Notes under the pieces: generated by a model
What the model saw: the letters and a program-made list of their open reading frames with translations, nothing else
Databases searched by the model: none
What the model was told of the DNA's origin: nothing
Translations under genes and position numbers: made by a program
Assembly: GCF_000219355.1 (NCBI RefSeq)
Contig: NC_015722.1
Coordinates: 1,050,001 to 1,082,000, forward strand
Reading direction: 5' to 3'
From: Candidatus Midichloria mitochondrii IricVA
GTDB taxonomy: Bacteria > Pseudomonadota > Alphaproteobacteria > Rickettsiales > Midichloriaceae
Length of the DNA: 32,000 nucleotides
Shown here: positions 993 through 26,319 of the stretch, piece by piece
Layout: each line of letters begins with the position of its first letter
Numbering within the stretch: position 1 is the stretch's first letter

Positions 993-2316
993 ATGCAGAA
1001 TATAGCTTATAAAATAACAGGCGGAGAAAAAGTTAGCGGTAAAGTGACTTGCATGGGAGCAAAAAAATTTTGCAACCAAAGCCATGATAGCCTGTTTGCT
1101 ATCAAGAGAAATATCTACCTTGAATAATGTCCCAAGAATTGGAGATGTCGAAATTACGCAGAAACTTTTGGAATCAGCTGGAGCTCGTATCAGTTGGAAT
1201 GCACATAATTCCATAACTATAGACCCTGCGCCTCTACAAGAATCAAAAGTTGCGCTTCCAGATTCAAGAACAAATAGGATGCCAATTCTATTGCTTAGTG
1301 TGCTTTTACACCGATTCGGAACTGCAACTGTTCCAACAGTTGGAGGTGATGATATCGGTAAAAGAAATGTCGACTTTCATATAGACGCTATTCAAAAATT
1401 CGGAGCAGACGTAAAAAAAGAAGGTAATGTATATACTGCGGAAGTGAGGAATAAGCTCAAGGGTTGTCACATAACTTTACCTTACCCATCAGTTGGAGCC
1501 ACAGAAACCTGTTTATTTTTAGCCACACTCGCTGAAGGAACTAGCGTTATTAAGAATATTGCAATTGAGCCAGAGATTATCGCACTAATAACTATGTTAA
1601 GAGCGATGGGCGCTATTATATTTTTAGACTCAGGGAGGTGTATAACTGTACACGGTGTGCAGGAATTAGATGGCACTAATATTTATGTAATTGGAGATAG
1701 AATAGAGGCCGCCTCTTGGGCCTCACTCGCTTGCGCTTCAGGCGGGGAAATAGAGGTGTCTGGGGTAAAACCTGATCAACTTGGTAATTTTCTTTCATAC
1801 TACAACCAAGTTGGCGGCGGTTATAAATTGATTGATGCCGATACAATTAAATTCTATCGTCGGCATGAGTTAAAGCATGTCATTATTGAAACAGATGTTT
1901 ATCCAGGATTTTCAACAGATTGGCAGCAGCCTTTTTCAGTATTATTGACACAGGCTAACGGTATGTCTGTAATTCATGAAACTGTATATGAGCAACGATT
2001 CGGTTATTTAGAAGTATTAAATAAGTTAGGAGCAAAAACTCAAGTAGTAAAAGCTTGCTTAGGCTCTCTTCCTTGTCGCTATAAAGGCTTTGACTATGAG
2101 CATGGCGCTCTAATATATGGCCCTACAACCCTCAAAGCAATTCCAGAACCAATTGCAGTACCAGATATAAGAGGTGGACTTGCTTACCTCATTGCTGCTG
2201 CCCTTGCAGAAGGCACGACTATACTAACAGTCGCAGAACAAATAGAAAGAGGCTACGGCGATTTAATCGAAAAGTTAAAAGACGTCAACCTAAAGATAGA
2301 AAAAATAAGAGTATGA
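993..2316 (+). CDS. murA: UDP-N-acetylglucosamine 1-carboxyvinyltransferase MurA; reading frame interrupted by one extra A in an A7 run (1061-1067)
   Basis: The ATG at 993 gives MQNIAYKITGGEKVSGKVTCMGAK, then the frame dies. The 410-aa ORF 1084..2316 in the next frame is a full-length MurA/EPSP-synthase-fold protein (RIGDVEITQKLLESAGA, VGGDDIGKRNVDFHI, GDRIEAASW, RGGLAYLIAAALAEG). Deleting one A from the run fuses the parts as GAKNFATKAMIACLLS, the canonical MurA N-terminus. Confidence 0.85.
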
Positions 2317-3445
2317 GTACCATCGAAACATTTAAAAAAAGTATAGAGAATACCTTAGAGCTTCTCAGGAGGTATCTTTGACTGGGATAATTCTCTAACA
2401 AGATTACAGCAACTTAACTATGAGTGTGAGCAGCTATCTTTATGGTCTGATCAACAAAAGACTAAGAAACTGCTAAAGGAGAGAGACTACCTGGAAAAAT
2501 CTATTAATGGAATCGTCAAGATTAGAAAAAAAACTTAAGGAAAATTTAGAGTTATACAATCTAGCAAGTGAAGCTAGTGATCAAAGCTTAATCTTGGAAA
2601 TTGACCACGAATTAGAAAAACTATCTCAGGAAACGAAAAAACAAGAAATAGAATGTTTATTTTCAGGCGAGGCTGACAATAATGGCTGCTTTGCTGAAAT
2701 CCATTCTGGAGCTGGAGGAACTGAGAGTAACGATTGGGCTGCTATGTTACTTAGAATGTACTTACGTTGGATTGAACAGCATAAATTTAAGTCTGAAATA
2801 ATAGATCAACTAAGTGGTGAAGAGGCTGGTATAAAATCATGTACAATAAAAATTTCGAGCCCTGGGTCATATGGTTGGCTCAAGAATGAGACCGGTATAC
2901 ATAGATTAGTTAGAATTTCACCATTTAATAGTGCCGGGAAAAGACACACCAGCTTTGCAAGCATTTTTGTGTATCCAGTTGTTGATGAAGACATACAAAT
3001 TAAAATAAAGGAGTCAGAGCTAAGAATTGATACTTATAGAGCATCAGGAGCGGGGGGACAGCATGTTAACACTACAGATAGTGCGGTTAGAATCATACAC
3101 CTGCCAACAGGAATAGTAGTGCAATCACAAAGCAACCGTTCCCAACACCGCAATCGAGATGAATGTTTTTCTATGCTAAAGGCGAGGCTCTATGATCTAG
3201 AACTAAAGAAAAAAGAGGCAGCAGCTAGCCAGCTGAATGCCTCCAAAACCGGTATTAGTTGGGGCCACCAGATTAGATCCTATGTTCTACATCCTTATCG
3301 TGTGGTTAAAGATTTAAGAACTGGTCACCAAGAAACAGACACCACCGCAGTTTTAGACGGAGATCTTGACAAATTCATGTATAAGATGTTAGTAAGCAAA
3401 GCGACCGGTAAGGGCCTAGATAACTTTATTGAAGATTTGGATTAG
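2313..3445 (+). CDS. prfB: peptide chain release factor 2, with the programmed +1 frameshift at codon 23 and a second frame break in an A8 run (2526-2533)
   Basis: The ATG at 2313 overlaps the murA stop (ATGA). It encodes MSTIETFKKSIENTLELLRRYL followed by an in-frame TGA at 2379-2381. The +1 frame continues DWDNSLTRLQQLN...SINGIVKIRKK and stops at 2536. ORF 2507..3445 carries the RF2 body (SGAGGTESNDWA, SPF motif in RISPFNSAGKRHTSF, GGQ motif in RASGAGGQHVNTTDSAVRI). Removing one A from the run joins KIRKK to LKENLELYNLA. Confidence 0.9.
2367..2382 (+). promoter_or_regulatory. RF2 autoregulatory +1 frameshift signal: AGGAGG TAT CTT TGA C
   Basis: An internal Shine-Dalgarno-like AGGAGG (2367-2372) lies 3 nt upstream of the slippery CTT (2376-2378), followed by TGA-C. 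This is almost identical to the E. coli prfB site AGGGGGUAUCUUUGAC. Confidence 0.9.
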
Positions 3446-3448
3446 TTT

Positions 3449-3652
3449 ATGCGTTGGACAGATATTTACGATATAGCAATTTCTTTAGAAGAAAAGTACC
3501 CTGATATTGATATAATTAATATCAGCTTTCCAAAACTAAAAGAGATGGTGGTTTCTCTAAATTATCTCGATGATTTGCCTAACAGATCAAACGAAAAGAT
3601 ATTAGAAGCAGTCCAAGCTGCATGGCTTGAAGAAAGGGATAGCAACCATTAG
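3449..3652 (+). CDS. iscX: Fe-S cluster assembly protein IscX (YfhJ)-like
   Basis: 67-aa ORF with the IscX signature layout: WTD near the N-terminus, YPDID, and C-terminal SNEKILEAVQAAWLEE. Compare E. coli IscX: [20 protein letters not shown]...SNEKILEAI..W..E. Confidence 0.75.
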   Translation: MRWTDIYDIAISLEEKYPDIDIINISFPKLKEMVVSLNYLDDLPNRSNEKILEAVQAAWLEERDSNH

Positions 3653-3709
3653 AAAATTTTCTCCCAAATATAGAGAGCCAAAACAACTTCCGTATTATAA
3701 AGAGCCAAA

Positions 3710-5483
3710 TTACTGAGCCATATGCTCATCTAGCAAGTCCCAACGTAGCTCTTCGTAAACCCAGGAAGTTGCATTATCCGCACCAACTACTAAAAATATG
3801 TCCAGTTCTGGATCAAACCTGGTGAACATTTTGAGCGTAGCTAGTACTGCTGCCACTGTAACCCCAGGATCTCATCGTCTGGGTCTAAGCCTGGATAACG
3901 GACTTGGAGAACCAGCGAACCATGAATTACTCTCGCCCAATTTCTCATGCAATCCTTGCAAGAACGTTATTTCTAAATTATTTGCTTCCTCACTATTTTC
4001 ATCATAACCTAATGCGGTTCTTAAATCTCTAAACCAGCTTGCTACCCTATCAAACACCTCGTTATCCCGCTCTATAATGGCAGAATCTGAGTCAATTAAT
4101 TCATTAGTGCCAGCAATCGCCTTAAACAATGAAGTCACTAGCTTCTCCATATCACTTTTAAAGCCTTTTGATCTTAAACTCCTCTTTGTGCTGCTCAAGT
4201 TTGATTAAAATATCACGCAAAGCTTCCTCTCCGCCCTCATCGAAAGCTTGGATAAGAAAGCTTAGCAGCTTCATTTTCTTTTCCATCTTGATCTATTGCC
4301 AACTTAATTACTCTATTTAAAAGGTCCGCTCCATCATTGCTATTAGTAGCTAGTTTTAACATGGCCGTATTTCTTAAAAGCACACTATCGTATTGTGTTT
4401 CTGCCCTTACTTAATGTTGGATAAGCTCCACTACTACCGTAAACTTCTTGCTCTTCAGGAGACACCAAGTTTGATTCCTCACCGGCCGCGTTTCTCTTCC
4501 CCTCAAGCGGTCTATCTTCAATTACATTTAATTCTCTTCTAGCAAAGTGGGGTCCCCTATGGACCAAACATTGGATTTATATTAGCCTGCATTTCGTCTT
4601 CTCCATAACTCTGGATATTAAATATAAACTTTAGGTCAGTACGCATCCTGGTTGGTTCTCTGATCATCTTCTCTAAAGAAGATTTATATATAGAGAGCTC
4701 TTTGTAATAGAGCACAGGCTTCAGTATGGTTATGCTGTCTATCATACAGTAACGCTATTTCTCGATAAACTTGTGCCACCTCAGCATTAGTTTCCCCATA
4801 CAGTTCCTTATATATAGCAAGCTTTGCATACAGCAATCGCGTCTTCATGATTTTGTAAATTTTTATACACTAAACCTATGCGGTCACACACCTGTGCTAC
4901 CTCCTTGCTGTTTTCTCCAAGGATCTCACGGCTAATATCTAAAGATAAGTGATAGAAAATTTTAGCTTTATCATACTAGGTTCCGCCAGGCGCAATGATC
5001 CCCTGCCACGCTAGCTAGCAACTTCAAGCCGTTGTTCTTTTTTTAAATCTTCAAGAATTTTTAAATCGCTGATAATTTTGCTAGTATGCGCCAAAGCATT
5101 ATCGTGGAGTGGAGTTACAAAGCCGGATTCATTACATAACTGAGTCAAAACTTTCATCCACAACATTTGCAATTCCGCTTTATTAGAAGCGGACGAAGTA
5201 TCCACTCCTACAGCTAATTCAAATATTCGATAGGTAGACGGCTCTTTAAAGCGTATTAAAAAACCGTGTTCTTCGCAAAGCCTTAATGCTACGCTATAAT
5301 ACTCGTCATTTCCTGCAATTCTTTCTAATAAATACGCAAAAATGGGCTCCTTCGCAACTAATGATACTGCTTCACTAATTTGATTGCCAAAAGTGCTGCT
5401 GGATCTTCTAATTTTCTCCATTCCTTGAATATCTCCTGAAGCTGAGTCTCACTAAAATTTTCTTCTTTGGTGCTGTCACGCAT
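3710..5483 (-). pseudogene. degraded gene for a TPR-repeat (kinesin-light-chain-type TPR_10/12) protein, fragmented into at least 6 frame pieces
   Basis: The minus-strand reading starts at ATG 5483 (MRDSTKEENFSETQLQEIFKEW) and hops frames through ORFs 5011..5421, 4557..4745, 4385..4567 and 3872..4198. The last piece ends at the stop at 3710-3712. Region 4560-4990 translates to 42-aa TPR units (DKAKIFYHLSLDISREILGENSKEVAQVCDRIGLVYKNLQNHEDAI / AIYKELYGETNAEVAQVYREIALLYDRQHNHTEACALLQRAL) interrupted by stops and frameshifts. Confidence 0.55.
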
Positions 5484-5796
5484 ACCTACCTCTATCTATA
5501 ACAACAAAAACAACACCGTAGCGTATTGTATATACACCTCAAAACAGTGGTCAAGATTTTTTTACAGCAATAGCGAGGTAGGAGAAAGTTGCGTAAACAC
5601 AGCAGAGTAACTCTTATTCATCGAAAAAGGCAGCATAAATAATTGGCGGGCAACGCATTTACCCTCGAACCGCGACAAACAAAAGTCCTCACAGGCTTAT
5701 CATCCATACTACTGCAACAGAAGCTATACTCCACTATCAAAATATTTTATAGTCTCCCCTGCTTGTACGCTGTATACCAATATCTCTTTATCAAAC

Positions 5797-6039
5797 CTAA
5801 GATAAAAGTATATTGCATCTATCTTTGGTAATACGAGCAAAACCCCATTCAATATCATAAATCGTTATGGTGTTCTCTAAATAAGCCTTGATTTGCCCCT
5901 TCTTTAATGTAACAACCATAGGTATATGTCCATTTAAAATTCCTAATTCTCCTTCCTTTCCTGGAATTACTATCATATCTAAATCCTCGTCTAGAATCTT
6001 GGAATCAAGTGCTAACAACTTACAGTTTATTTTTGACAC
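5797..6039 (-). CDS. atpC: F1 ATP synthase epsilon subunit, short form (beta-sandwich domain only)
   Basis: 80-aa ORF immediately downstream of atpD. It has the epsilon N-domain pattern (LDMIVIPGKEGELGILNGHIPMVVTLKKGQIK...GFARITKDRCNILL). No C-terminal helical hairpin is encoded before the stop. Confidence 0.8.
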   Translation of the reverse strand: MSKINCKLLALDSKILDEDLDMIVIPGKEGELGILNGHIPMVVTLKKGQIKAYLENTITIYDIEWGFARITKDRCNILLS

Positions 6040-6049
6040 TATCTACCTA

Positions 6050-7489
<1,440 letters not shown>

Positions 7490-8353
7490 TTATATTGCTT
7501 GTGCTCCTGAAATGATTTCAATAAGCTCTTTTGTAATTAAAGCCTGTCTTGTCCTACTATATTTATTGCTTAAATTATGTAGCATTTCTTTAGCATTTCT
7601 TGTCGCATTATCCATAGCAGTCATTCGCGCACTGTGTTCGCTGGCCGCATTTTCAAGTAGTACATTATAAATAACAGCTATTAAATATTTTTCTGTTAGT
7701 TCCTCAATCATTTCTGGTAAAACCGGCTCAAACTCAAAATTTGCACCTTGATTGGTTATTCCAACCTCACAAGGAATAATCTGTTTATTAACTGTTTCAT
7801 ACTGCATTGCTGATACAAAATTATTAAATATGATATTTGCAGTATTAAACTTATCTAAGCTTAAATCCTTAATAATATTTTCTACTATTGAGCTTGCTAA
7901 TTTAGTGTCTATTTGCTTTGTGCTCGACACTTTTGTGACTAATTCCGTCCCAAAATGATTACTTAAGCTCTCATCACCGCGCTTTCCAATGCACCTTATA
8001 TAAAAACTTTCACCTAAAGTTTGTAGTGTAGTACAATACTCTTTTGCTTTTTTGATTACAGCAGCATTAAAGGAGCTACACAGTCCTCTATCAGAGGTGA
8101 CTACAACAATCAAATGTTTCTGCCTTTCAGAAAATTTTTTAAACATCGGTATATTTAATTCGGCACTCCCAGCAACAGATATGATCATTTCCTGCATTGC
8201 AGTTGTGTATGGAATAGATAACTCCAAAGCCTCCCTCGCCTTATTTAGTCTTGCGGCAGAGATAAGTTGCATTGCTCTAGTAATTTTCTGCGTGGATTTT
8301 ACACTCTTTATCCGTCCCTTTAAAAATTTTAATGAAGACATAGCGTTTCCCAA
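7490..8353 (-). CDS. atpG: F1 ATP synthase gamma subunit
   Basis: 287-aa ORF. The N-terminus SLKFLKGRIKSVKSTQKITRAMQLISAARL and C-terminus ALITKELIEIISGAQAI are canonical gamma helices. It sits between atpA and atpD. Confidence 0.93.
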   Translation of the reverse strand: MGNAMSSLKFLKGRIKSVKSTQKITRAMQLISAARLNKAREALELSIPYTTAMQEMIISVAGSAELNIPMFKKFSERQKHLIVVVTSDRGLCSSFNAAVIKKAKEYCTTLQTLGESFYIRCIGKRGDESLSNHFGTELVTKVSSTKQIDTKLASSIVENIIKDLSLDKFNTANIIFNNFVSAMQYETVNKQIIPCEVGITNQGANFEFEPVLPEMIEELTEKYLIAVIYNVLLENAASEHSARMTAMDNATRNAKEMLHNLSNKYSRTRQALITKELIEIISGAQAI

Positions 8354-8356
8354 ATA

Positions 8357-9881
8357 TCACACAAAAGACTTGGCAAAATCAGATAAAACTTTATGCAACT
8401 CCTTTGCAATATCATCACTAATCTCCTGTTCCGTTTTTATTCGCTCAAGCAATACAGAATTATTAAATTTGGTATACTCGCGTAATGTTTCTTCAAATCT
8501 CTTAACGTCTTTTGTTGCTAAAGCGTCCAAATACCCATTAATACCCGCAAAAAGGCCTAAAATCTGCTCCTCAACGGCACTGGGGCTATATCGAGCTTGT
8601 TTTAAGAGCTCCGTTAATCTTTCGCCCCGAGCCAATAATTTTTGCGTTGCTAAATCTAAATCCGCAGAAAATTGAGAAAAAAGCTTCCATTTCTCTATAT
8701 TGTGCAAGCTCTAATTTAATACTACCTGCAACTTGTTTCATAGCTTTAATTTGTGCTGCCGATCCAACCCGGCTAACTGATAACCCAACGCTAACTGCAG
8801 GTCTAACACCTTTATAAAAGAGTTCTGTTTCTAAGAAAATTTGTCCATCAGTAATTGAAATCACATTTGTTGGAATATATGCTGAGACGTCCCCTCCTTG
8901 CGTTTCAATAATGGGTAAGGCAGTTAAAGAACCACCGCCATCTTTATCTGACATTTTAGCAGCTCTTTCTAGAAGCCTGGAATGCACGTAAAAAACATCC
9001 CCAGGATAAGCTTCACGTCCCGGAGGTCTACGTAATAATAACGACATCTGCCTATAGGCTACAGCATGCTTACTTAAGTCATCATATATGATTAAGGCAT
9101 GCATTGCGTTATCACGGAAAAACTCGCCAATACTGCAACCTGTATAGGGAGCAATAAACTGCATTGGAGCTGGTTCTGAAGCTGATGCTAAAACAACCGT
9201 CGTATAGCTCATCGCTCCTTCTTCCTCAAGTTTTTTAATTATTTTGGCAACAGAGGAGGTTTTCTGACCAATTGCGACATATATGCAGTGTATCTTATCT
9301 TTATCATCGCCTGATATATGAGCCTCTTTTTGGTTTAATATAGTATCAATTGCTATAGCTGTCTTACCTGTTTGCCTATCTCCTATGATTAATTCCCGCT
9401 GCCCTCTACCTATTGGGATAAGCGCATCTATTACTTTAATACCAGTCTGCATAGGCTCGCTAACCGACTGTCTAGCTATGATCCCAGGTGCCTTTACTTC
9501 TACTCGCCTATATTCAACACTTTCTAAGGGTCCCTTACCGTCTATAGGGTTACCTAATCCATCTACGACCCGACCCAGTAGGCCTTTGCCAGTTGGGACT
9601 TCAAGAATTTCTCCGATCCTTTTAACTGCTTCTCCCTCAACAACGTCTCGGTCGCTACCAAATATAACTACTCCAACGCTCTCTGCTTCCAAATTCAGCA
9701 CCAGGCCCTTTACGCCACTACTAAATTCAACAACCTCACCAGCCTGCGCAGCGTCAAGGCCGAACACTATAGCAACTCCATCCGACACTTTAACAACTTG
9801 CCCTATTTCATCAAGAGATGCAACCTCCTGAAAACCTGAGATTTTTTGTTTTAATACATTAGATATCTCTGAAGCCTTCAT
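8357..9881 (-). CDS. atpA: F1 ATP synthase alpha subunit; frame interrupted by one extra T in a T6 run on the coding strand (A6 at 8677-8682 on +)
   Basis: ORF 8586..9881 (431 aa) has Walker [16 protein letters not shown] and runs to ...[12 protein letters not shown] before going out of frame. ORF 8357..8707 supplies the missing C-terminus ([33 protein letters not shown]...). Removing one T gives [13 protein letters not shown], the conserved alpha-subunit junction. Confidence 0.92.
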
Positions 9882-10426: not shown

Positions 10427-10528
10427 TTAACAAAATTAGCCCGCAGAACTAGACCCCCAGGAGTAACACACATTACAATTATTGACAATACATTGTAACT
10501 CGATTTAATAAATTTTTTCAAAAGTGTC

Positions 10529-15125
<4,597 letters not shown>

Positions 15126-15768: not shown

Positions 15769-17106
15769 ATGCAGAGGAAACTGCAAAATTTGATTGGAGA
15801 GGTACGGGCTATACCAGACTTCATGGTGAGCGGTGTTGTCACGGCTGTTAAGGGTCTATTAGTAGAAGCTAAAGGAATAGAAAAAATGGCCTATATTGGC
15901 TCACGTTGCCAAATTGAAGCACGTGATGATCATCATATTTTAGCCGAAGTAATAGGTTTTGAAGAGAATACTACTCTCTTAATGCCCTTCGATAATATCA
16001 ATGGAATAGGTGTTGGAGCGGTTATTAGAGTAATAGCTAATGATCAATTAATTTATCCGACTAAACAATGGGTAGGCCGAGTACTCAATGCGTTTGGAGA
16101 GCCAATTGATGGAAAAGGCCCTCTGCCCCTTGGCAACAAAGCATATTCTCTGCACTCCACTCCACCCGCTCCTCAGGCACGCAAGAGGGTTGGTGAAAAG
16201 CTAAATGTTGGTATTAGAGCAATAAACACCTTCTTATCCTGCTGCAAGGGCCAAAGAATGGGTATCTTCTCCGGCTCAGGAGTTGGCAAGTCTATGATGA
16301 TGGCAATGATGACGAAATTTGCTTCTGCAGATATCAAAATAATAGGTCTAATAGGCGAAAGAGGAAGAGAGGTCCAGGAGTTTATAGAAGACTATCTTGG
16401 TGAAGAGGGATTGAGAAAAGCAGTAGTTGTTGTTGCAACTTCTGATGAATCAGCCTTAAAGCGCAGACGAGCTGCTTACCTTACTTTAACACTCAGCGAA
16501 TACTTTAGAGATTCTAACTTGGAAGTGTTATGTATGCTTGATAATATAACCAGGTTTGCTATGGCCCAAAGAGAAATAGGATTAGCCGTTGGCGAGCCTC
16601 CAACAACGAAAGGCTATCCACCAAGTGTTTTTAGTGGGCTACCTTCTCTATTAGAAAGAGCAGGCCCTGGAACTCACGACCAGGCTTCTATTACTGCTTT
16701 TTTCAGTGTTTTAGTGGAAGGAGATGATACTAATGAACCAATTGCTGATGCAGTTAGGGGAATTTTAGATGGTCATATCGTGCTAGACAGAGATATAGCT
16801 GGTAGAGGAATATTTCCAGCTATTGATGTCGCCAAAAGCATATCGAGAACAATGCCTCGATGTAATAACGATAAGGAAAATGAGTTAATACAGAAAGCTA
16901 AAAAACTTATTGCTACTTATAACGATATGGCTGATATGGTGAGAATAGGTGCTTATAAGAAAGGTACTGATAAAGAAGTAGACGAAGCAATTCAATATTA
17001 TGATAAAATTTGCTCATTCATTTCTCAAAAATATAATGAAAGCGAAGATATAAAGGGGTCATATGAAAAGCTTGCTAAAGCTATTAATTTTAAGTTTAAT
17101 AACTAG
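15769..17106 (+). CDS. fliI: flagellum-specific (type III export) ATPase FliI
   Basis: 445-aa ORF with Walker A GSGVGKSMMMAMM, Walker B VLCMLDNITRFAMAQREI and the overall FliI/YscN architecture. No fliH or fliJ lies adjacent. Confidence 0.88.
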   Translation: MQRKLQNLIGEVRAIPDFMVSGVVTAVKGLLVEAKGIEKMAYIGSRCQIEARDDHHILAEVIGFEENTTLLMPFDNINGIGVGAVIRVIANDQLIYPTKQWVGRVLNAFGEPIDGKGPLPLGNKAYSLHSTPPAPQARKRVGEKLNVGIRAINTFLSCCKGQRMGIFSGSGVGKSMMMAMMTKFASADIKIIGLIGERGREVQEFIEDYLGEEGLRKAVVVVATSDESALKRRRAAYLTLTLSEYFRDSNLEVLCMLDNITRFAMAQREIGLAVGEPPTTKGYPPSVFSGLPSLLERAGPGTHDQASITAFFSVLVEGDDTNEPIADAVRGILDGHIVLDRDIAGRGIFPAIDVAKSISRTMPRCNNDKENELIQKAKKLIATYNDMADMVRIGAYKKGTDKEVDEAIQYYDKICSFISQKYNESEDIKGSYEKLAKAINFKFNN

Positions 17107-17461: not shown

Positions 17462-17586
17462 TTGTCACAATTTTCTAGCAAAAACAGACTAAAATTCAAT
17501 CGCATAAGTTGAAACTCGGTGTCGTTTAAGCCCGTTGCAAAAAAGCAACTATTAGGTCTTTTTTACAGATTTATAGTATTATCAAT

Positions 17587-17614
17587 TTGACCACGTTGAC
17601 AGAAATATTATAGT
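17587..17614 (+). promoter_or_regulatory. candidate sigma70-type promoter for the OMP gene (TTGACC - 16 nt - TATAGT)
   Basis: The -35-like TTGACC is at 17587-17592 and the -10-like TATAGT at 17609-17614, about 100 nt upstream of the ATG at 17712. This is a motif match only. Confidence 0.25.
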
Positions 17615-17711
17615 TGTTTTAGCTATAAATTGTACTCTTGGGATCCCGCGCTCATTAGGTCGCAATTTATTGATTAATAAACAACAATAATAAACAAAAA
17701 ATAGGATAATT

Positions 17712-18480
17712 ATGAAAAAAACTTCTTTAATTGCTTTTGCAGCTGCTGCAATTTCTGCATCTTCTGCATTGGCTGCTCCTGGCGGTGTGTATGTCGGTTT
17801 AAATGGCGGCTATCAAATGATTCCTGGTAAAGTTAAAGCTGACTTATTTAAATACTCAACTAAGTCAACACCTGATGCAGCTATTGAACCAAGCGTTGAC
17901 TTAGAAGGAGCTCCAAGAGGTCCATTTGTTAATGCGGCTTTTGGTTATGTAGTTTCTGACGAATTCAGAACAGCTTTATCTTTCCAATACAACTTTGATC
18001 AAAAAAACACCTATAACAAAGAACGTGTAGAAACTAATAAAGTTAATGCAGCTCCAAAATTAAAACTTTCTCAATCTTGGAATGTTTTAGCTAGCTTTTA
18101 CTATGACTTCTTAAACACTTCTGCTTTCACTCCATTCATCGGCGTTGGCTTAGGTTACGGTGCTAGAACTTATGCAGTAGAAGGTATCCAAGCTAAAGCT
18201 GCTACTACAGTGATCGGTACTATCGGAAGTATAGATGACGTTGCATTAAAAGCAGGCAGCAAAGCAACCAAGAAAGCTTTTGTTTTCGGCGGAACCCTTG
18301 GCGTTGCTTACAAAATTAGCAACCAAGTCAGCTTAGAATTAGCTTATGCTGTTCAAACCTTACCTAAAGCTGAAACAAAATTGCCAGCTGAAGTATCTAC
18401 AAACAACGAGCATGCTGCTAAATTTAAAGCAAAAAAATCTTGCTCATAACGTAAGCGCAGGCGTTAGGTTTGCTTTCTAA
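17712..18480 (+). CDS. outer-membrane beta-barrel protein (OMP_b-brl / surface-antigen-like); C-terminal strand displaced by one extra A in an A7 run (18431-18437)
   Basis: It has a signal peptide (MKKTSLIAFAAAAISASSALA/AP) and alternating amphipathic strands (FTPFIGVGLGYG, FVFGGTLGVAYKIS, VSLELAYAV). The annotated frame ends ...KSCS*. The adjacent frame encodes AHNVSAGVRFAF* (stop at 18478-18480), a textbook OMP C-terminal strand ending in Phe. Removing one A gives AKNLAHNVSAGVRFAF. Confidence 0.75.
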
Positions 18481-18501
18481 TGAGCATTTGCTAAATATGT
18501 G

Positions 18502-18538
18502 AAAAGCCACGAATTCTTCTCGTGGCTTTTTCCTTTTC
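18502..18538 (+). terminator. rho-independent terminator after the OMP gene
   Basis: A perfect 10-bp stem pairs AAAGCCACGA (18503-18512) with TCGTGGCTTT (18520-18529). The loop is 7 nt and the stem is followed by a T-rich tail (TTCCTTTT). Confidence 0.7.
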
Positions 18539-18756
18539 TAAATAATGTCGCCAAACTAGCAAAGCCTAACAGAAGAGCAAGTAATATTAAGCTTTTAAAG
18601 GGAATGTTACGTCAAGTCAAACTGAGAAAAAGTAAGGCATTTCGGTCTATGGTTAAAGCGTTTATAATTCGCTCACACTTAGCTTTAATTTTCGTGTAAC
18701 CTTTTTGACTGCGCCGGCCTATTCGCCTTTGCTGTATCAAAATTACCAGCTCTAGA

Positions 18757-19557
18757 TTAACCAGCTCCAGCTGTAGAATTCGGTAAATTATTTAAATTGC
18801 CTTGCAGAAGCTTATTAACATCGGCCTCAAGTAGCGTATTTAGGATTGCAGATTGGGTACTTTGATCATATCTCAAAGCCTGCACCTTGTCCATTTCAAC
18901 CTTTCTTCCGCATTTAGTCAGCAAATATCTTATTCTTTTTGAATCCTCGCCTTCTTGAATAATTTCATCAACATAGGTATAGTAGGCCTTCATATTTGCT
19001 ACATCTTTTTTTTCAACATCGAACTCATCTATAATTCTAAATTTTAGCCCCTTATAAAAATCTTCACTCTTACCTGGTATTCCGCTCCAAGTAAATTTTG
19101 TGTCCGAATTTCTAATTGATTCAGTAAATACAACGTCCCCGACGGCATCAATTATTTCTAATACCGGGTTTTTAGCTTCCTCTTTAATCTCAAAATTTAA
19201 TAAAGCCTTACCACCCTGCATGACTACCTTATCGCCTCCTATTAGTACACCCTTACCAAATAAGTGCGAATAATTACCAATATTATCAGCAGATTGCATG
19301 ACTTTTTCTAACCGCTCCATTGTCATAACTTGAGCTTCCCCTTGTTCAAGCGCGATAATAGTACTCACCATATTCATTGAAGTCGTTGGGTCGGTTTGTT
19401 GCAGTGGGTTAACATTCCTAAACGAAGCTATAAGTAACCTCATCATATCACTTTTCAGTTCCTGTACAGAACGCTTCTTGGACGATGCTGAAGCTATTTT
19501 AGGTTTTTCGTTCTGAACTTTAGATTTTATATCCATTTCCACAAGGCAGTACCTCAA
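18757..19557 (-). CDS. flgD: flagellar hook assembly/capping protein FlgD
   Basis: The N-terminal region ELKSDMMRLLIASFRNVNPLQQTDPTTSMNMVSTIIALEQ matches the FlgD motif (F..LL..QL.NQDPL.P.D......Q.A.FS.LEQ). It sits directly downstream of fliK. The likely true start is the Met at 19536 (MDIKSK). Confidence 0.75.
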   Translation of the reverse strand: MRYCLVEMDIKSKVQNEKPKIASASSKKRSVQELKSDMMRLLIASFRNVNPLQQTDPTTSMNMVSTIIALEQGEAQVMTMERLEKVMQSADNIGNYSHLFGKGVLIGGDKVVMQGGKALLNFEIKEEAKNPVLEIIDAVGDVVFTESIRNSDTKFTWSGIPGKSEDFYKGLKFRIIDEFDVEKKDVANMKAYYTYVDEIIQEGEDSKRIRYLLTKCGRKVEMDKVQALRYDQSTQSAILNTLLEADVNKLLQGNLNNLPNSTAGAG

Positions 19558-19569
19558 AAATGATTTTAT

Positions 19570-20643
19570 TTAAATTAATAAATTCACACCACTAACTATG
19601 CCATTAACCAAAATGCTAGCAGTTTTTATTTTTTTATCAAGGCCATTTCCTAAGCATTCATTTGTTGTAGTCTGCAACAAAGTACCGGAGCTATTTCTAC
19701 TAGTTCCTGTCTTTCTTTCAAAGCTTTGCATGGCAAAATTAATATTAGCTTGGTTTATACCAATACCCGCAAGCATTGACACTAGTCTTTCACTATTTTG
19801 TTTTAACATAAAATAGGTGGATTCCCTTCCAACATTAATTTGGATGCTATGCTTTTCACGATTTTCTTGATCCGGAACAAATACTATTTCGACAGAACCA
19901 AGATGAGCAGGCTCCAGTTGGACAACAATTTTGTCAGACCTACCATTCTTAGTAGCTGATATGTGGGTTAATATTTGATTATTAATATCCTCAAGATTAT
20001 TTTGTTCAACTGTTTCATATTTATAGCAAATTTCAGCTGGATCAATTCTTATCTCGATAGGATTTAAAAATTGGTAAATTAACTCTTCTTCCACTGTTTT
20101 TGTTTGAGAACTTTGCTGATTTGTTCCTTCATCTACCTTTCCTATAGCACCGTCATTAAGTTGCATTTCAAACGGTAGGGCTGTAGAGTTGGTAGGCTGC
20201 TTAAGCACATTTTGTATAATACTTTCATCATTTACATCTTGAATCGGCAACTCAGCAACTTGCTTTACTACCTGTTTTTTATCTTCATAAGATAACTGAG
20301 GCTTAGGCCATAATTGCTCTTTAATTGTGAAGACTTTAGAAGATTCATTTAGTAATTCTTGTTTCACTTCTGCTTTGATATTAACCAGCTCAAAGGTACT
20401 AAAATTCACATCAAAAAATTGATTCTCGTTATCAGCCGGTGCAACTTCCGCAACAAACTCATTATTAGGCTCTATATACTCTTTTAAGTTCCCGATCACA
20501 AAGTTTTTACCACCTAAATTTACTAACAAATCTAAAAAATTTAGGTTTGCCCCTATAAATAGCTGCTTGATAGTCGGAGCAGTCTGCCCCTGGGAATTAT
20601 CCTTATTGACAGGTAAAAAAATTTTTGGAATGTTTTGTGTCAT
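19570..20643 (-). CDS. fliK: flagellar hook-length control protein FliK (divergent)
   Basis: 357-aa ORF. Its N-terminal two thirds are low-complexity and Q/N/E-rich. The C-terminal block KIVVQLEPAHLGSVEIVFV...IQINVGRESTYFMLKQNSERL resembles the Flg_hook domain (L.L.P..LG.V.V.L). The gene is syntenic with flgD. Confidence 0.65.
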   Translation of the reverse strand: MTQNIPKIFLPVNKDNSQGQTAPTIKQLFIGANLNFLDLLVNLGGKNFVIGNLKEYIEPNNEFVAEVAPADNENQFFDVNFSTFELVNIKAEVKQELLNESSKVFTIKEQLWPKPQLSYEDKKQVVKQVAELPIQDVNDESIIQNVLKQPTNSTALPFEMQLNDGAIGKVDEGTNQQSSQTKTVEEELIYQFLNPIEIRIDPAEICYKYETVEQNNLEDINNQILTHISATKNGRSDKIVVQLEPAHLGSVEIVFVPDQENREKHSIQINVGRESTYFMLKQNSERLVSMLAGIGINQANINFAMQSFERKTGTSRNSSGTLLQTTTNECLGNGLDKKIKTASILVNGIVSGVNLLI

Positions 20644-20683
20644 AGTAAACTTTTTAATATTCTAATAATTAACAGCAAATATC

Positions 20684-21326
20684 ATGCCAAAAATTTCTGC
20701 ATCAATATTATCCGCTAATTTTTCTATCCTCAAAGAAGAAATAATGAAACTCAAAAAGGCGGGCGCTGATTACATACACGTTGATGTTATGGATGGCATA
20801 TGTTCGTACCCAATATCACCTTAGGCCCTAAAGTTATTGCAGATATTGCCAAGCACTCCCAAATTCCTTTGGATGCGCACCTCATGATAGAAAGGCCATA
20901 ACGCTATGTGTAAAAAGAGTTCATAACAGCTGGCGGTTCAATTCTAACCATCCACTTAGAAGCAACACAAAATCCTAAGGCAATCCCTTCAAGAAATTAA
21001 GAGTTATGGAGTTGCTGCCGGTATTTCTGTATCTCCCGATACTGGATAATTTATATGATTCTATAGATTTAATATTAGTAATGACAGTACACCCTGGCCT
21101 TGCTGGACAGAAGTTTTTACCTTCGCAGCTAAAAAAATTGCTAATATTCGCAGTAAAATCAACACCACAAACCGCGATATATTGTTGTCCGTAGACGGAG
21201 GCATTAAATGAGACAACAGCTAAACAATGTATAGAGTAAGAGGCGGGCGCTAACATCCTAGTCGCGGGCAGCTTCATATTTAATAACACCAACTATAGGA
21301 ATAATATAAGGGCCTTGAAAATATAG
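20684..21326 (+). pseudogene. rpe: ribulose-phosphate 3-epimerase pseudogene
   Basis: It starts [38 protein letters not shown] (a canonical Rpe N-terminus) and then breaks. Later Rpe blocks are scattered over all three frames (IPLDAHLMIE, ILTIHLEAT, GVAAGISVSPDT, LILVMTVHPGLAGQKF, SVDGGI, AGANILVAGS-like) with several in-frame stops. Confidence 0.85.
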
Positions 21327-21412
21327 TTTATAAAAAATTGAAAGTCCCTAGATGCTAGCTTCCATTATGCGAGTTCTATAATATACTAAACAAAAAATAG
21401 ATTCCTAAGACT

Positions 21413-22117
21413 ATGGTAAACATCGACCACATCAGAGCAGTGACAGCCTCCCATGCTACGCCTCCCTCTTTCCGAGCTAAGGCATTTTTCAAAATTGGCA
21501 GCGGTCACTATGCTGAAGGCGGTGAATTCATAGGAGTGACCGTACCAAATTTGCGCACAAGATCGCTAAAAATTTCTCTAATATTAGCCTAAGCTCCTTA
21601 CTTGGAGTCACTTCTATCTTCAAAAATTAACGAAGAGAGGTTGTGTTGGCGTTACTAATACTCGTCCATCAGTATAAAAAAGCAGAAGTTAATCTGAAGG
21701 AAGAGCTATATCAATTTTATCTGAAAAATTTGCAATACGTGAATAATTGGAATCTTGTGGATAGTTCAGCTCATTTAATTATGGGGAGCGCACTCTCATG
21801 GGATAAAGATCGATCCATTTTGCTTCAGCTGGGGAACTCGGAAGACTTATGGGAGCGCCGAATAGCTATCATTGCTACTTGGTATTTTATTCGTAAAGAG
21901 GACTTAGACTGGACATTTAATATTGCATACCTACTTATTAATGATAAACATGACCTAATTCATAAAGCAGTTGGTTGGATGTTACGTGAAGCAGGGAAAC
22001 GTAATGAACGAGCTCTAATAGAATTCTTAGAGAAGAATGTACTTAAAATGCCAAGAACAATGCTTACGCTATGCAATTGAAAATTTGAAACCACAGCAGC
22101 GAAAAAAATATCATTAG
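21413..22117 (+). pseudogene. DNA alkylation repair protein (AlkD-like HEAT-repeat glycosylase family) pseudogene
   Basis: Three frame pieces. The N-terminal piece reads FFKIGSGHYAEGGEFIGVTVPNLR. The core ORF 21643..22080 reads LALLILVHQYKKA...NNWNLVDSSA...LWERRIAIIATWYF...IHKAVGWMLREAGK...MPRTML. The tail LRYAIENLKPQQRKKYH* in a third frame ends at 22117. Confidence 0.7.
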
Positions 22118-22173
22118 TACGAGCTATATCTTAAAAGAACTATTGCTATCCCTCAGAGCTGCCTCAATAAAAC

Positions 22174-22990
22174 GGCAATGCCTGGTAATTATAGACGGCA
22201 TAAGAGGGTGTGATATCTTCGTAGTAAAACGGGGGGGGCAGAAATTACAATTAAGTGTAAATATATTGCGGCTCCAGCGAGCAGGTGAAGAATGGTGTGG
22301 TATATGGACGGCAGAGGTATAGATTGCAAGAATTGCAAAAAGAATTACCGAGAAGGTGATAAGCGGCAGAAATACACGATGAATGATAGACTTAAAACTT
22401 AACCTTGAAGACTGTGGGATTAGGACGATAGAGAGACTGACTGGGAAATCCATAACAGCCAAAAATCTTCATGGATCGAAAGACGGGGGGGGGGACGCTA
22501 TGTGCAAGAAAAGTTAGATAAGAGCTGGCAACCAGCACAAAAAGTCACTTAAGGATATCGAGGTCCTAGAGATTGACGAGCTGTGCACATATATAAAAAA
22601 GACCAAAGAATGTAGGGGAACACCTTTATATGGATTGCTGTTGATAGAGGAGCGGGTGAAATTATTGATTTTGAAGGGTAGGTGACGGGAGTAAGGCAAC
22701 CTATCTGAACCTGGCATTTTAGGCTTGAAGAACGTTATAAAATTGAGCATGTACAGGTGATCACAGCGTTTATGAATACTATAAAATCTCCACGCACCAT
22801 CACGAAACAAAGGCTGGGACATCATTGTGGTAGAATCAAAGAATTCTTTAAAGGCATTATCTAGCTCGTTTTAATCGAAGAACGAAGCGCTACAGCAAAT
22901 TCCTGAGGATGCTTTGCACTATTCTTAACCTCTTCTTCCATAGGCATTTGCTGGATTTGAAACTTCTATCTATAAATGTTAGGCAATGCC
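22174..22990 (+). mobile_element. IS1-family insertion sequence relic, copy A (transposase frames destroyed)
   Basis: Imperfect terminal inverted repeats: GGCAATGCCTGGTAATTATAGACGG (left) versus the reverse complement of the right end, GGCATTGCCTAACATTTATAGATAG (18/25 match). The interior encodes InsA-like zinc-ribbon/HTH fragments (CKNCKKNYREGDKRQKY; GIRTIERLTGKS) and InsB-like DDE fragments (LEIDELCTYIKK; IWIAVDR..GEIIDFE; LARFNRRTKRYSK), broken by stops. Homology to copy B stops exactly at these ends. Confidence 0.75.
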
Positions 22991-23132
22991 ATCAATACTT
23001 AATCAAAACAATTGACTAAAACCACAATCATTGATATAAGGCTATCTAAAATTTCTTTGCTATGAAGTCTTTTGCTGTATCCGTTTCTTCAGAAATCTAT
23101 TCCCTTCAATCCCCAATGTATGGAGCGTTGTT

Positions 23133-24104
23133 ATGAAACAGCAGCGTTCTCTCTATGGCATTTTATTCATGTTAGTTAATACTCTGGCCTTGGCAGGGCT
23201 AGATATCGCAGTAAAAACCCTAAGACAAGATTTGCATGCTGGCATAATAGTTTTTTTATATAAGTTCAGCCTGCTTATTATAATATTGCCATGGGTCTTG
23301 AAAGATGGACTGAAACGACTTAAGACTCAAAGAATAATGTCGCACATGCTGCGCAGTTTGTTTAGTGTTGCTGGCGCATTATGCTTTTATCATGGCCTGT
23401 ATTTTGTTAATATGGCGGATGCTGCAGCTCTTGAAAATCTTCAATATTTAATTGTTGCCATCTTTGGAATTATGTTTTTTTCAGAAGAAATTTCTGTTTC
23501 AAAAATAGCGGCAATAATTTTAGCCTTTATTGGGGCGCTTATTGTGGTAAATTTCGAAACCATTTCAGGATTTGGTACAATACAAAGTACGAGTTATAAT
23601 AAGGGACATATTTTAATTTTGCTCGCAATCTCTTTTTGGGCTTGCAATACTATAACGGTAAAACTATTAAGCAGCACCGAACATAACAAAACTCAAATGT
23701 TCTATTTATTGCTAACCGCCTCAATTTTATCTATCCCTTCTGCCTTCATTAAATGGAGTGAAGTAACTCTTTGGAATATTAATTTACCACTTATCCCAGA
23801 ATTCATTGATTTATCAACTACTCATTTGAAATTAGATCATATACTTCTAATAGGCTTTATTGCAGCCTGTTATTTTATTCATGGCGTCATGTATTTTAAT
23901 GCATTAAAATCAGAATTATCTGTGGTAATACCTTTTAGATATACCAAATTGATGTTTAGCGCATTTTTAGGCTGGCTCTTCTTCGCCGAGCAGCATAGTA
24001 AGTTTTCTTATATTGGATATACTTTAATCATAATAGCCGGCTTACTGCTGGTTAGATCACAGATGCAAAAGATTCCTAAAAAGAAAAAAGAAATGGCTGC
24101 CTAG
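23133..24104 (+). CDS. DMT-superfamily (EamA-like) transporter, about 10 TM segments
   Basis: 323-aa ORF, hydrophobic throughout, with two EamA-like halves (LFMLVNTLALAGLDIAVK...; ILILLAISFWACNTITVK...) and a basic C-terminal tail. The substrate is not inferable. Confidence 0.8.
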   Translation: MKQQRSLYGILFMLVNTLALAGLDIAVKTLRQDLHAGIIVFLYKFSLLIIILPWVLKDGLKRLKTQRIMSHMLRSLFSVAGALCFYHGLYFVNMADAAALENLQYLIVAIFGIMFFSEEISVSKIAAIILAFIGALIVVNFETISGFGTIQSTSYNKGHILILLAISFWACNTITVKLLSSTEHNKTQMFYLLLTASILSIPSAFIKWSEVTLWNINLPLIPEFIDLSTTHLKLDHILLIGFIAACYFIHGVMYFNALKSELSVVIPFRYTKLMFSAFLGWLFFAEQHSKFSYIGYTLIIIAGLLLVRSQMQKIPKKKKEMAA

Positions 24105-24175
24105 GCCATTATTGCACGAAGTCTGGAATTATTATATACTTTATTAGCAGAGTATTTTAATCGTATATTTTCTGA

Positions 24176-24829
24176 ATGAAACGCTTTTTTATATTTTTAT
24201 TAACTGCTTTTTTAAGCGCCGAAGCTGCTTTTTGTGAAACTGAACAAAAGGCAATCATGCAGGAACTGGTTTTTTCTAAGGCGGTAAGAAAAATACCCAA
24301 AATTAATTTTGTAGACGAAGTAGAAAATAACTATGACATTAAAGATTTTGAAGGTCAAATAGTTATCCTTTATTCCTGGGCGAGTTGGTGTGTTGAGTGT
24401 ATCAATGAATTAAAAAGATTAGATACCTTAAAATCAAAATTACTGTATGAAAATGTTGCAGATATTGAAATTATTCCAATCTCAATAGATTTTAAGCAGC
24501 CTGAATTTTTACACTCTGTATACAAAAATACTGGTATTGCTAATCTCGGGTTATTTATTGATCAAAATAAAAAAGTTATGAAAACCTTAGAAATTAGCGG
24601 AGCACCCTACACTATAATTTTAGACAAAAATCTCATGGAAATTATGAGAACAAATCAGCACATAAAATGGGACAAAGCAAACATTATCGATCAATTAATT
24701 AAACTGCGTGGTGGACCAGTAAAAAAATATCAAAGCGACGCTCTACAACTAGAGCATTCTGAAGATTTGCAAAAAGAAGGTGACAATGTTGACAATTCTG
24801 ATATACAGAGGATGTTGAATTCAAAATAG
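24176..24829 (+). CDS. secreted/periplasmic thioredoxin-fold thiol:disulfide oxidoreductase (TlpA/redoxin-like)
   Basis: It has a signal peptide ([17 protein letters not shown]) and a CxxC active site in the context [19 protein letters not shown], typical of the TlpA/ResA/CcmG family. An acidic C-terminal extension follows. Confidence 0.75.
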
Positions 24830-24834
24830 ATGAT

Positions 24835-25290
24835 ATGAGCAGCGTCTTAGTCCCCATTAAAGAGCTTGAACATTATAAAGAATTACCTTTACCGTCTTAT
24901 GCCACAATTGATAGCGCTGGTATGGACCTGGTGGCTGCGATTTCAGAAAATGAGTCAGTTGAATTATTACCAAGACAAAGGAAATTAATTCCAACTGGAA
25001 TAGCCATAGCTTTGCCTAAGGGTTTTGAAGCGCAAATTAGGCCTCGATCTGGGCTCGCTATAAAAAGCGGTATAACGGTTACTAATGCTCCAGGTACCAT
25101 TGATGCTGATTATAGAGGCGAAATCTTTGTATCCTTAATCAACCTAAGCGAGGAAGCTTTCCGAATTACAAGAGGCATGAGAATCGCCCAAATGGTCATT
25201 GCTAGATACGAAAGAATTAATTGGAACTTGACAGAATCTTTAGATGAAACTGCACGGGGTGCAGGTGGATTCGGGTCTACTGGATTATAA
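24835..25290 (+). CDS. dut: dUTP diphosphatase
   Basis: 151-aa ORF with all five dUTPase motifs ([38 protein letters not shown]). Confidence 0.95.
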
Positions 25291-25292
25291 AT

Positions 25293-25956
25293 ATGCTTGG
25301 AAATAACACCATACTCAGACCTGAAAAAGGTGATGGGTCTTGTCTTAAGGTAAATTCAATATTCGATACTTTACAAGGTGAAGGCCTATACGTTGGTGCT
25401 CCTGCTATTTTCATAAGGCTTGCTGGCTGTAACTTAGCCTGCACTTTTTGTGATACCGAGTTCGATGAATATCAGGAAATATCTGTTGAAGAAATCATCA
25501 AAAGGGTTAAGGCATTCTCTCACACTTACAAAAAAATTAGTGGTTTTGACTGGAGGAGAACCTTTTAGGCAGCCGATCTCTCTATTATGTGAAAAATTGG
25601 TAAACGAGGGATTTAAAATTCAAATAGAGACTAATGGTTTGCTATACCGAAATATTCCTAAAGAAGTTGAGGTAATATGTTCTCCCAAAAACACTGGAAA
25701 TGGCTATCAGCAGATACGAAAAGATTTATTAGGACATGTTAAAGCTATAAAATTTCTCATCTCAGCCTCGAACAACCTTTACCAAGATATAGGGACAATT
25801 GGCCAATTAAATGCTGATATTAAAGTATATGTTCAACCAATGGATGAGTTCGATGAAAAATTAAATGCAGCCAACGCTATATTAGCAATGCAAGTAGCCC
25901 GCAAACACAATGCAATTTTATCTATGCAGCTGCATAAAATATTAAGAATAGAATAA
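25293..25956 (+). CDS. queE: 7-carboxy-7-deazaguanine synthase QueE (radical SAM); frame interrupted by one extra A in an A7 run (25530-25536)
   Basis: ORF 25293..25568 has FDTLQGEGLYVGAPAIFIRLAGCNLACTFCDTEF (QueE CxxxCxxC cluster motif). ORF 25450..25956 continues KKLVVLTGGEPFRQP...IQIETNG. Removing one A joins ...AFSHTYKK to LVVLTGGEP. Confidence 0.85.
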
Positions 25957-26319
25957 ATCTAACTTTCCATAGAACTATTCTCTTTGTCAGTATTAATACC
26001 ACTGAAGAATCGTGTAGTAAATTAAGCAAACAGATCCGTCGATATCGCCTTAACACTTAAGCGGTAAATCCTCAACAAGAAACGGACTACAGAACAAGAA
26101 ATCTCTTCAATTAGTTTAAGAATCAACTGCATAATCCAAAGAATTTGCTTTTTTTAAATCAACAGTTGTATTTAATATGTATTATAGATGTGTATGCCAA
26201 AAATTAATGTATAATATACATACCGTTGTTGGTATAGTCGTTATTATTCTTTGCTTTCTAACCTCTAGTTCGACGTGAGGAGTAGGCCTGCGAGCCTATC
26301 TTTCCATGAGGTAGAGGGT

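Follow-up and report, generated by a model that had tools for sequence, protein, structure and literature searches.

The five single-base frameshifts in murA, prfB, atpA, an outer membrane protein (OMP) gene and queE that interrupt a 32,000-nucleotide stretch (the window) of CP002130 (NC_015722), the 2011 reference assembly for Candidatus Midichloria mitochondrii IricVA, are in all probability (about 95%) base-calling or consensus errors of that assembly and not features of the organism, judging from the same genes in other individuals of the species. Read directly, the window does have a frame break at each of the five genes. An earlier note on this DNA offered two explanations, systematic homopolymer over-calling or genuine indels whose products are rescued, and held that sequence alone cannot decide between them; comparison with other assemblies does decide, and it strongly favors over-calling. 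Each surplus base is private to one 454-only assembly and is absent from approximately 15 conspecific assemblies and, at the three sites covered, from sister species.

Repaired genes and comparison assemblies

In four of the genes the surplus lies within a homopolymer, as follows.

993..2316, + strand: murA, 440 aa once one A of 1061-1067 is removed (TIGR01072 at 1e-125)
1061..1067, + strand: murA run, A7 in the window and A6 in other assemblies, a probable over-called homopolymer
8357..9881, - strand: atpA (F1 alpha), 507 aa once one base of 8677-8682 is removed (TIGR00962 at 1.7e-242)
8677..8682, - strand: atpA run, six bases in the window (+ strand A6, coding-strand T6) and A5 elsewhere, a probable over-called homopolymer
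17712..18480, + strand: OMP beta-barrel gene (Adr-like), 255 aa once one A of 18431-18437 is removed
18431..18437, + strand: OMP run, A7 in the window and A6 elsewhere, a probable over-called homopolymer
25293..25956, + strand: queE (radical-SAM 7-carboxy-7-deazaguanine synthase), 220 aa once one A of 25530-25536 is removed
25530..25536, + strand: queE run, A7 in the window and A6 elsewhere, a probable over-called homopolymer

The earlier note had described all five genes as broken by one surplus base within an A/T run, which is exactly the case for these four, while the surplus in prfB lies outside its run. Its further claim that removal of one base from the run restores a conserved protein is borne out at murA, atpA, the OMP gene and queE, where the repaired products match the expected families and are 100% identical to conspecific proteins. 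Repaired MurA is identical to a protein present on 15 contigs (P0008), repaired AtpA to the product of the 507-aa gene in loci L001-L005, repaired QueE to that of a 220-aa Radical_SAM gene in L006-L011, and the repaired OMP to the product (P0003) of a 255-aa PF13505 gene in L012-L018. The OMP matches a Rickettsia Adr-like/OMP_b-brl protein, and repaired QueE matches QueE, yet under the curated cut-off of each model.

The comparison set consisted of approximately 15 other M. mitochondrii assemblies with an identity to the window of at least 99.9%, ten of which were read base by base over the whole window, at 99.89-99.97% identity, and five further conspecific assemblies were grouped as having mostly the same neighboring proteins. 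They represent two independent technologies and include the JALDT* metagenome-assembled genomes (MAGs), built de novo with SPAdes from Illumina reads (bioRxiv 10.1101/2022.05.16.490919), and the OY97* complete genomes, which are Illumina and nanopore hybrids from one tick each (PMC12282096). None of the assemblies read has the extra base at any of the five sites, and all encode full-length proteins: murA has A6 in five of the five loci read (L001-L005), the extra base is likewise missing from 5/5 loci at both prfB and atpA, and the runs of the OMP gene and queE are one base shorter in 7/7 and 6/6 loci. We considered whether the comparison assemblies were biased toward intact genes and rejected this, as the MAGs were assembled de novo and the hybrids used the reference only for read recruitment. 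IricVA comes from Italy and many of the genomes compared with it are Dutch or of other origin, a difference that counts against the artefact reading.

For polarity we used two sister species, the Midichloria of Ixodes holocyclus and of H. scupense, which were found by scanning genome contigs with the repaired MurA and show 84-93% DNA identity to the window. The murA and prfB sites are covered in both and the atpA site in one, and none of these carries the extra base: the murA run is one base shorter in both (L019 and L090), and the atpA site of L019 reads CAAAA, likewise one base fewer.

The situation in prfB is different, and involves three features.

2313..3445, + strand: prfB (RF2), 376 aa when A2524 is deleted and the native programmed +1 shift is applied (TIGR00020 at 3e-147)
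2367..2382, + strand: RF2 programmed +1 frameshift cassette, with SD-like AGGAGG at 2367-2372 and CTT TGA C at 2376-2382
2524, + strand: isolated A flanked by T2523 and G2525, probably spurious, one base ahead of the genuine A8 run at 2526-2533

Here the window has GATT-A-G-A8-C, as opposed to GATT-G-A8/A7-C in the other assemblies and both sister species; over a longer span it reads GATTAGAAAAAAAAC against GATTGAAAAAAAAC in five of the five assemblies read, and both sister species side with the five. Because the other assemblies and the sister species are without that A, the surplus base is A2524 and not, as the earlier note had it, one of the eight bases at 2526-2533, and the genuine length of the run is A8. 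The RF2 junction proposed there, KIRKKLKENLE, is consequently wrong at one residue (R71 for E71), the real junction being VKIEKKLKEN, and the description of prfB as broken only by one base overlooks the canonical programmed +1 site that is also present. The joined product aligns to TIGR00020 over 351 of 353 positions and corresponds to the RF2 form of the other assemblies (P0018, 376 aa). The elements of a +1 frameshift site occur at 2367-2382 only, not at 2524; the CTTTGAC heptamer is kept in L019 and L090, and the AGGAGG is identical in L090 and ATGAGG in L019.

Private indels and pseudogenes across the window

Single-base indels private to this assembly number eight in the window, and all eight are surpluses with no deletions (two-sided binomial p = 0.008), in keeping with the earlier observation that the changes are surpluses and never deficits. 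Seven lie inside runs of 4-8 bases and the eighth, at 2524, is one base from the A8 run, so that every one is in or beside a homopolymer. Five of the eight strike otherwise perfect, essential or conserved genes, and the remaining three are the following.

21783..21786, + strand: private surplus G, G4 in the window and G3 in 7/7 covering assemblies, inside the alkD-like relic
22231..22238, + strand: private surplus G, G8 in the window and G7 in 9/9 covering loci (one G6), in a repeat element of ~820 bp
26149..26155, + strand: private surplus T, T7 in the window and T6 in 6/6 covering assemblies, downstream of queE

With these surpluses in G4, G8 and T7 runs the pattern is not one of A-runs on the + strand, as had been supposed, and we rejected that regularity as a clue, the further private surpluses in T and G runs rendering it uninformative. 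The contrast drawn earlier with multi-lesion pseudogenes does hold, in that rpe, the alkD-like gene, FG-GAP and the transposase relics are fragmented in other assemblies too. Between assemblies, only the poly-G tracts of the non-coding repeat vary within the window. Private SNPs of IricVA are restricted to four derived positions (7439, 7557, 8582 and 20523), which mark a slightly distinct lineage. The window also contains a 357-aa flagellar hook-length-like open reading frame. Rfam and tRNA scans of the window returned only a tRNA-Ser at 27488-27577, and nothing relevant to the frameshift sites.

Origin of the surplus bases

Pyrosequencing on the 454 platform infers homopolymer length from light intensity, and DNA amplified by multiple displacement amplification (MDA) yields very uneven coverage, such that in thinly covered runs of approximately 5-8 bases an over-call in a few reads can win the consensus. 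A base inserted beside a run is a recognized 454 flow-phasing artefact.

Judging by its listed data sets, the IricVA assembly was made from Roche 454 reads alone, generated on MDA-amplified DNA with very uneven coverage. At murA, atpA, the OMP gene and queE, over-calls in a few reads of thinly covered runs may have won the consensus and left a surplus base. At prfB, templates lagging on the opposite-strand T8 would complete the run only when T was flowed again, once C had been added, giving T8-C-T, or A-G-A8 in + strand terms. The flow-level details at the individual sites are inferred and likely to be of this kind; at 2524 the error is more than a miscounted run, which we counted against the artefact reading. 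The real murA, prfB, atpA, OMP gene and queE would thus be intact, with no recoding needed beyond the normal programmed +1 shift of RF2.

The published record is consistent with this origin. The three M. mitochondrii project data sets re-analyzed in PMC3842359 are 454 GS-FLX, 454 paired-end and 454 Titanium reads of MDA products with strong amplification bias, and no Illumina set is listed there for M. mitochondrii, unlike for Wolbachia; together with PMC12282096 these descriptions indicate a flow-based platform without short-read polishing. The authors of PMC12282096 have already raised "(454) sequencing artifacts" for the IricVA reference, in which alone fabD (COG0331) is "missing". Their 11 new genomes each show 170-191 "deletions" relative to the reference, a near-constant number, as would fit one unchanging set of surplus bases private to the reference, whereas their SNPs number anywhere from 317 to 625. 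Moreover, the sole groEL of IricVA is frameshifted too (PMC6403173). A literature search on pyrosequencing and pseudogenes in Midichloria found nothing.

An alternative is that the indels are genuine in IricVA and that RNA-polymerase slippage or +1 ribosomal frameshifting on A/U runs restores full-length proteins, as in Buchnera and Blochmannia. Four of the five breaks do fall within A/T runs, none of the affected genes has any other flaw, three of them are normally essential, the few private SNPs mark IricVA as a distinct lineage, and the phenomenon exists in reduced endosymbionts, where 12-50% of transcripts are corrected at long poly(A) tracts (PMC5009743). Nevertheless, we regard this explanation as very unlikely. 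Where slippage is at work, a frameshift should be common to related strains, and here the approximately 15 other M. mitochondrii lack it at every one of the five sites and the sister species at three (murA and prfB, and in one species atpA), so that the indels are neither conserved nor kept by selection. Efficient bacterial slippage is described on A/T runs of approximately 9 or more bases (PMC5009743), whereas the runs at issue here are 6-8 bases long (A7, A6, A7 and A7, with the prfB insertion outside its A8). Rescue would further mean that essential or conserved genes had acquired five or more independent frameshifts within 32 kb, in a lineage that differs from its relatives there by only four substitutions; every indel is +1, non-coding DNA included, and the assembly is, as far as its listed data sets go, 454-only and from MDA-amplified DNA. 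The second option of the earlier note is therefore not supported on three counts, as the species does not conserve the indels, the runs are short, and one of the five is outside any run. Rescue by slippage is unnecessary and unsupported. Were IricVA truly to carry the five surplus bases, with RF2, F1-alpha, MurA, QueE and the OMP kept by very efficient slippage or +1 frameshifting on 6-8 nt A/U runs, which strikes us as extremely improbable, recoding would be acting on tracts below the shortest length described in bacteria, in a lineage <0.1% diverged from strains with intact genes.

Slimmer still is the chance that the indels are genuine and unrescued, in a degenerating lineage or a minority tick sub-population, or that they were introduced by polymerase slippage during MDA. 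Midichloria genomes contain many real pseudogenes, every published genome is a mixture of cells, and the DNA was MDA-amplified from few cells (PMC3842359). However, the joint loss of RF2, F1-alpha and MurA, with groEL frameshifted too (PMC6403173), is not viable where the rest of the pathways are intact, and both halves of each gene are without further lesion and 100% identical to the intact alleles. Slippage of phi29 polymerase during MDA would yield both + and - changes, without enrichment of the 454 signature, and would in practical terms still be an artefact rather than biology. Phase variation of the OMP gene is rejected, since its run is A6 in 7/7 loci read and its 255-aa product is on 15 contigs, with only the reference deviating.

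Database entries and known systems

Truncated products of four of the genes live on in the databases: CP002130/NC_015722 still serves as the M. mitochondrii reference and the following proteins are carried as real in GenBank, RefSeq and UniProt.

AEI89387.1 / F7XU28: truncated MurA
AEI89388.1 / F7XU29: truncated RF2
AEI89396.1 / WP_013951589.1 / F7XU37: truncated AtpA, 431 aa
AEI89402.1 / WP_013951595.1 / F7XU43: truncated OMP, 245 aa

These are exactly the truncated products of the window, and by protein cluster membership each is found on a single contig of 1,183,732 bp, with the full-length forms on approximately 15 other contigs. Extrapolation suggests approximately 170-300 spurious surplus bases genome-wide in the reference, and analyses that draw on it, including pseudogene counts, pathway reconstructions, indel statistics and inferences of "genome decay", are inflated; such distortion is exemplified by the split groEL and by fabD, which only seems to be absent. 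There is no new biology in the five frameshifts, and their worth is curatorial, as database entries to correct. When an older assembly shows a clean one-base homopolymer frameshift in an essential gene, sister assemblies should be checked before recoding is invoked.

Among known systems, phase-variable contingency loci, which change by slipped-strand mispairing in homopolymers of surface-protein genes, resemble the OMP gene with its A-run near the 3' end, but run length varies at such loci and the OMP run is invariant (A6) in the 15 other assemblies. The programmed +1 frameshift of RF2 autoregulation is matched by the prfB of the window, with 3 nt separating AGGAGG from CUU UGA C; this cassette is a real recoding site in its own right, lies 145 nt upstream of the spurious break and does not account for the second frame change, at 2524. 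Poly(A) slippage in endosymbionts is similar in that an AT-rich, reduced intracellular bacterium has A-run frameshifts in seemingly functional genes, including a cell-wall gene. Those cases, as summarized in PMC5009743, involve long tracts and real frameshifts that were confirmed in DNA and recur across strains, whereas the Midichloria runs span 6-8 bases and the surplus is in no other conspecific assembly read, nor in the sister species where they cover the sites. The closest counterpart is provided by 454 homopolymer errors in finished bacterial assemblies, which are likewise single-base changes confined to a single flow-sequenced assembly, within or beside homopolymers of 4-8 bases, splitting otherwise perfect genes and gone in Illumina and hybrid assemblies; nothing substantive differs, and the sole oddity is the prfB base beside its run.

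Frame breaks and frame-restored products

Site reading and all-frame translation of the window recover a frame break at each of the five genes in which the earlier note had reported a single surplus base, namely murA, prfB, atpA, the Adr-like beta-barrel outer membrane protein (OMP) gene and queE. At four of these, removal of one base from an A-run restores an uninterrupted product, and the repaired proteins are 100% identical to those of conspecific assemblies. The features concerned, including those in prfB, are as follows.

1061-1067: A7 run in murA; minus one base, uninterrupted MurA (TIGR01072, 1e-125)
8677-8682: A6 run in atpA; minus one base, uninterrupted F1-ATPase alpha (TIGR00962, 1.7e-242)
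18431-18437: A7 run in the OMP gene; minus one base, uninterrupted Rickettsia Adr-like beta-barrel OMP
25530-25536: A7 run in queE; minus one base, uninterrupted QueE match
2367-2372 and 2376-2382: canonical RF2 programmed +1 cassette in prfB (AGGAGG, a 3-nt spacer and CTT TGA C)
2524: isolated surplus A in prfB

Junction peptides of the frame-restored products include GAKNFATK, KIEKKLKENLE and HTYKKLVVLTGGEP.

The prfB gene, which starts at 2313 and overlaps the murA stop, carries a programmed frameshift cassette that the earlier note overlooked; the CTTTGAC heptamer is kept in both sister species described below, with AGGAGG identical in the symbiont of Hyalomma scupense and ATGAGG in that of Ixodes holocyclus. 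A second frame correction is required near 2524-2533, and with both corrections the product matches TIGR00020 at 3e-147. The context here is GATT-A-G-AAAAAAAA-C in the window vs GATT-G-AAAAAAAA-C in other assemblies; since these share the A8 run and lack only the preceding A, the run has its true length, and it is the lone A at 2524 that is in excess. Removing a base from the A8 run, as had been suggested, mends the frame but yields R71 for E71, the true junction being VKIEKKLKEN. The original observation is thus essentially correct in its five frame breaks, and mistaken in the prfB base assignment.

The OMP gene (17712-18480) also has two true alleles among assemblies, S128 and N128 (G/A at 18094 and at the equivalent position of loci L013, L014, L015 and L017), divided 5 vs 10 among contigs encoding the 255-aa product; this is ordinary variation that has nothing to do with the A-run.

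Conspecific assemblies and sister species

Look-ups with the intact neighbours AtpD, Dut and CcmH yielded 18 loci, which belong to ten different M. mitochondrii assemblies (five more were merged as near-identical) and jointly span the entire window at 99.89-99.97% identity. None of the assemblies carries the additional base at any of the five sites, and all five genes are intact (atpA 507, murA 440, prfB 376, OMP 255 and queE 220 aa), with gene callers either joining prfB or beginning it past the programmed shift (283 aa). The rpe, alkD-like, FG-GAP and transposase relics are fragmented in other assemblies too, which bears out the contrast drawn earlier between multi-lesion pseudogenes and clean single-base breaks: real decay is the part held in common.

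Two sister Midichloria, of I. holocyclus (CP094379, ~84% DNA identity) and of H. scupense (~93%), share neither the murA nor the prfB insertion, and the former lacks that in atpA as well, so the window state is derived and unique. The sole indels between the window and the sister species in these coding regions are the window-private insertions. Exact look-up of the window products shows the same confinement, with four truncated proteins, all from Candidatus Midichloria mitochondrii IricVA, each found on one contig of 1,183,732 bp (CP002130).

MurA: AEI89387.1, 410 aa
RF2: AEI89388.1, 312 aa
AtpA: AEI89396.1, 431 aa
OMP: AEI89402.1, 245 aa

Full-length MurA, RF2 (in either called length) and OMP, by comparison, occur on ~15 other conspecific contigs. 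Several GenBank, RefSeq and UniProt entries derived from the IricVA reference are erroneously truncated.

Private differences across the window

Over all 32 kb, eight indels are private to the window relative to every assembly covering each site, and all are surpluses in the window (8/8; binomial p = 0.008), seven of them within homopolymers. Beyond the five genes these are G4 vs G3 (21783), G8 vs G7 (22231) and T7 vs T6 (26149). The window has 87 A/T runs that are 6 bases or longer, five of which are over-called. Private substitutions number only four (7439, 7557, 8582 and 20523). Three of them are derived relative to the I. holocyclus symbiont: synonymous ones in atpD and atpA, and S vs N in atpG. 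The fourth, at 20523 (V vs L in a hook-length-like gene), lies outside outgroup coverage. The change at 8582, AGGG to GGGG, extends a G run, hinting that some private substitutions may likewise be errors of the 454 platform and not markers of the lineage.

By contrast, the indels polymorphic within the set of other assemblies include both gains and losses. They fall in non-coding relics, and most are in poly-G/C tracts (22485, 27121, 31324, 31652); the remaining one is a single-base A deletion at 27324, outside any run. Tracts differing by 1-2 bases among assemblies are 22231-22238 (G8), 22485-22494 (G10), 27121 (C), 31324 (G) and 31652-31653; these are either truly hypervariable or reflect Illumina/nanopore run-length uncertainty, whereas A/T runs in genes are invariant.

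An ~820-bp repeat with transposase-relic fragments occurs twice in inverted orientation (22173-22990 and 26641-27432, 90% identity), and none of the other assemblies shows the junction that the window has across the first copy. In OY973614.1 the left flank of this copy maps to ~880 kb but the right one to ~1,035 kb, and the new genomes show at least three distinct left-hand contexts. The junction may be real recombination at the repeat or a 454/MDA mis-join in the reference, which has also been reported to differ in structure (PMC12282096).

Flagellar genes at 15769-17106 and 18757-20643 (fliI, a T3SS-type ATPase; a 357-aa Flg_hook-domain protein; a neighbouring 266-aa ORF) are intact and common to all assemblies of this non-motile tick symbiont. 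Such genes are already known for Midichloria.

Origin of the surplus bases

The surplus bases are confined to one 454-only assembly and are found nowhere in independent data, and homopolymer over-calling, the first of two explanations offered earlier, is almost certainly the right one. In 454 chemistry, run length is read from flow intensity and is over-called at ~5 or more bases under thin coverage. The A at 2524 may stem from incomplete extension on opposite-strand reads, in which templates lagging on the T8 run would finish it in the next T flow, past the C flow, giving T8-C-T, or A-G-A8 on the + strand. That such flow-level steps acted at these sites is inferred from the general behaviour of pyrosequencing.

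The IricVA project data, as re-analysed, are 454 throughout (GS-FLX single-end, paired-end and Titanium single-end), from MDA-amplified, micro-dissected ovaries with strong amplification bias and 33% chimeric read pairs (PMC3842359); such data are where homopolymer miscalls can persist into a consensus. The comparison genomes comprise the JALDT* MAGs, which are de novo SPAdes assemblies of Illumina reads (bioRxiv 10.1101/2022.05.16.490919), and the OY97* Illumina+nanopore hybrids from one tick each, for which CP002130 served only in read recruitment (PMC12282096).

The second explanation, genuine indels rescued by slippage, describes a real process in Buchnera and Blochmannia, where 12-50% of transcripts are corrected at long poly(A), and bacterial slippage is known on runs of ~9 A/T (PMC5009743). 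Its defining features fail here, however: the tracts are just 6-8 bases, the prfB lesion lies off the tract, and the frameshifts are absent from other strains and, at the sites they cover, from the sister species. Genuine indels would also need at least five same-direction essential-gene frameshifts in a lineage four substitutions per 32 kb from intact relatives, and we consider this explanation unsupported and very improbable. True unrescued gene loss, or a change introduced by MDA, is slightly less probable still.

Over-calling also agrees with genome-wide comparisons, in which 11 new genomes each show 170-191 "deletions" and 317 to 625 SNPs relative to the reference, with a possible 454 artefact contribution acknowledged (PMC12282096); eight private surpluses per 32 kb would scale to the same order as these deletions. 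fabD (COG0331) is missing from the reference alone (PMC12282096), the sole IricVA groEL was independently noticed to be frameshifted (PMC6403173), and both are likely further cases of the same class elsewhere in CP002130. The five breaks are almost certainly an assembly artefact of a known kind, in a reference already under suspicion.
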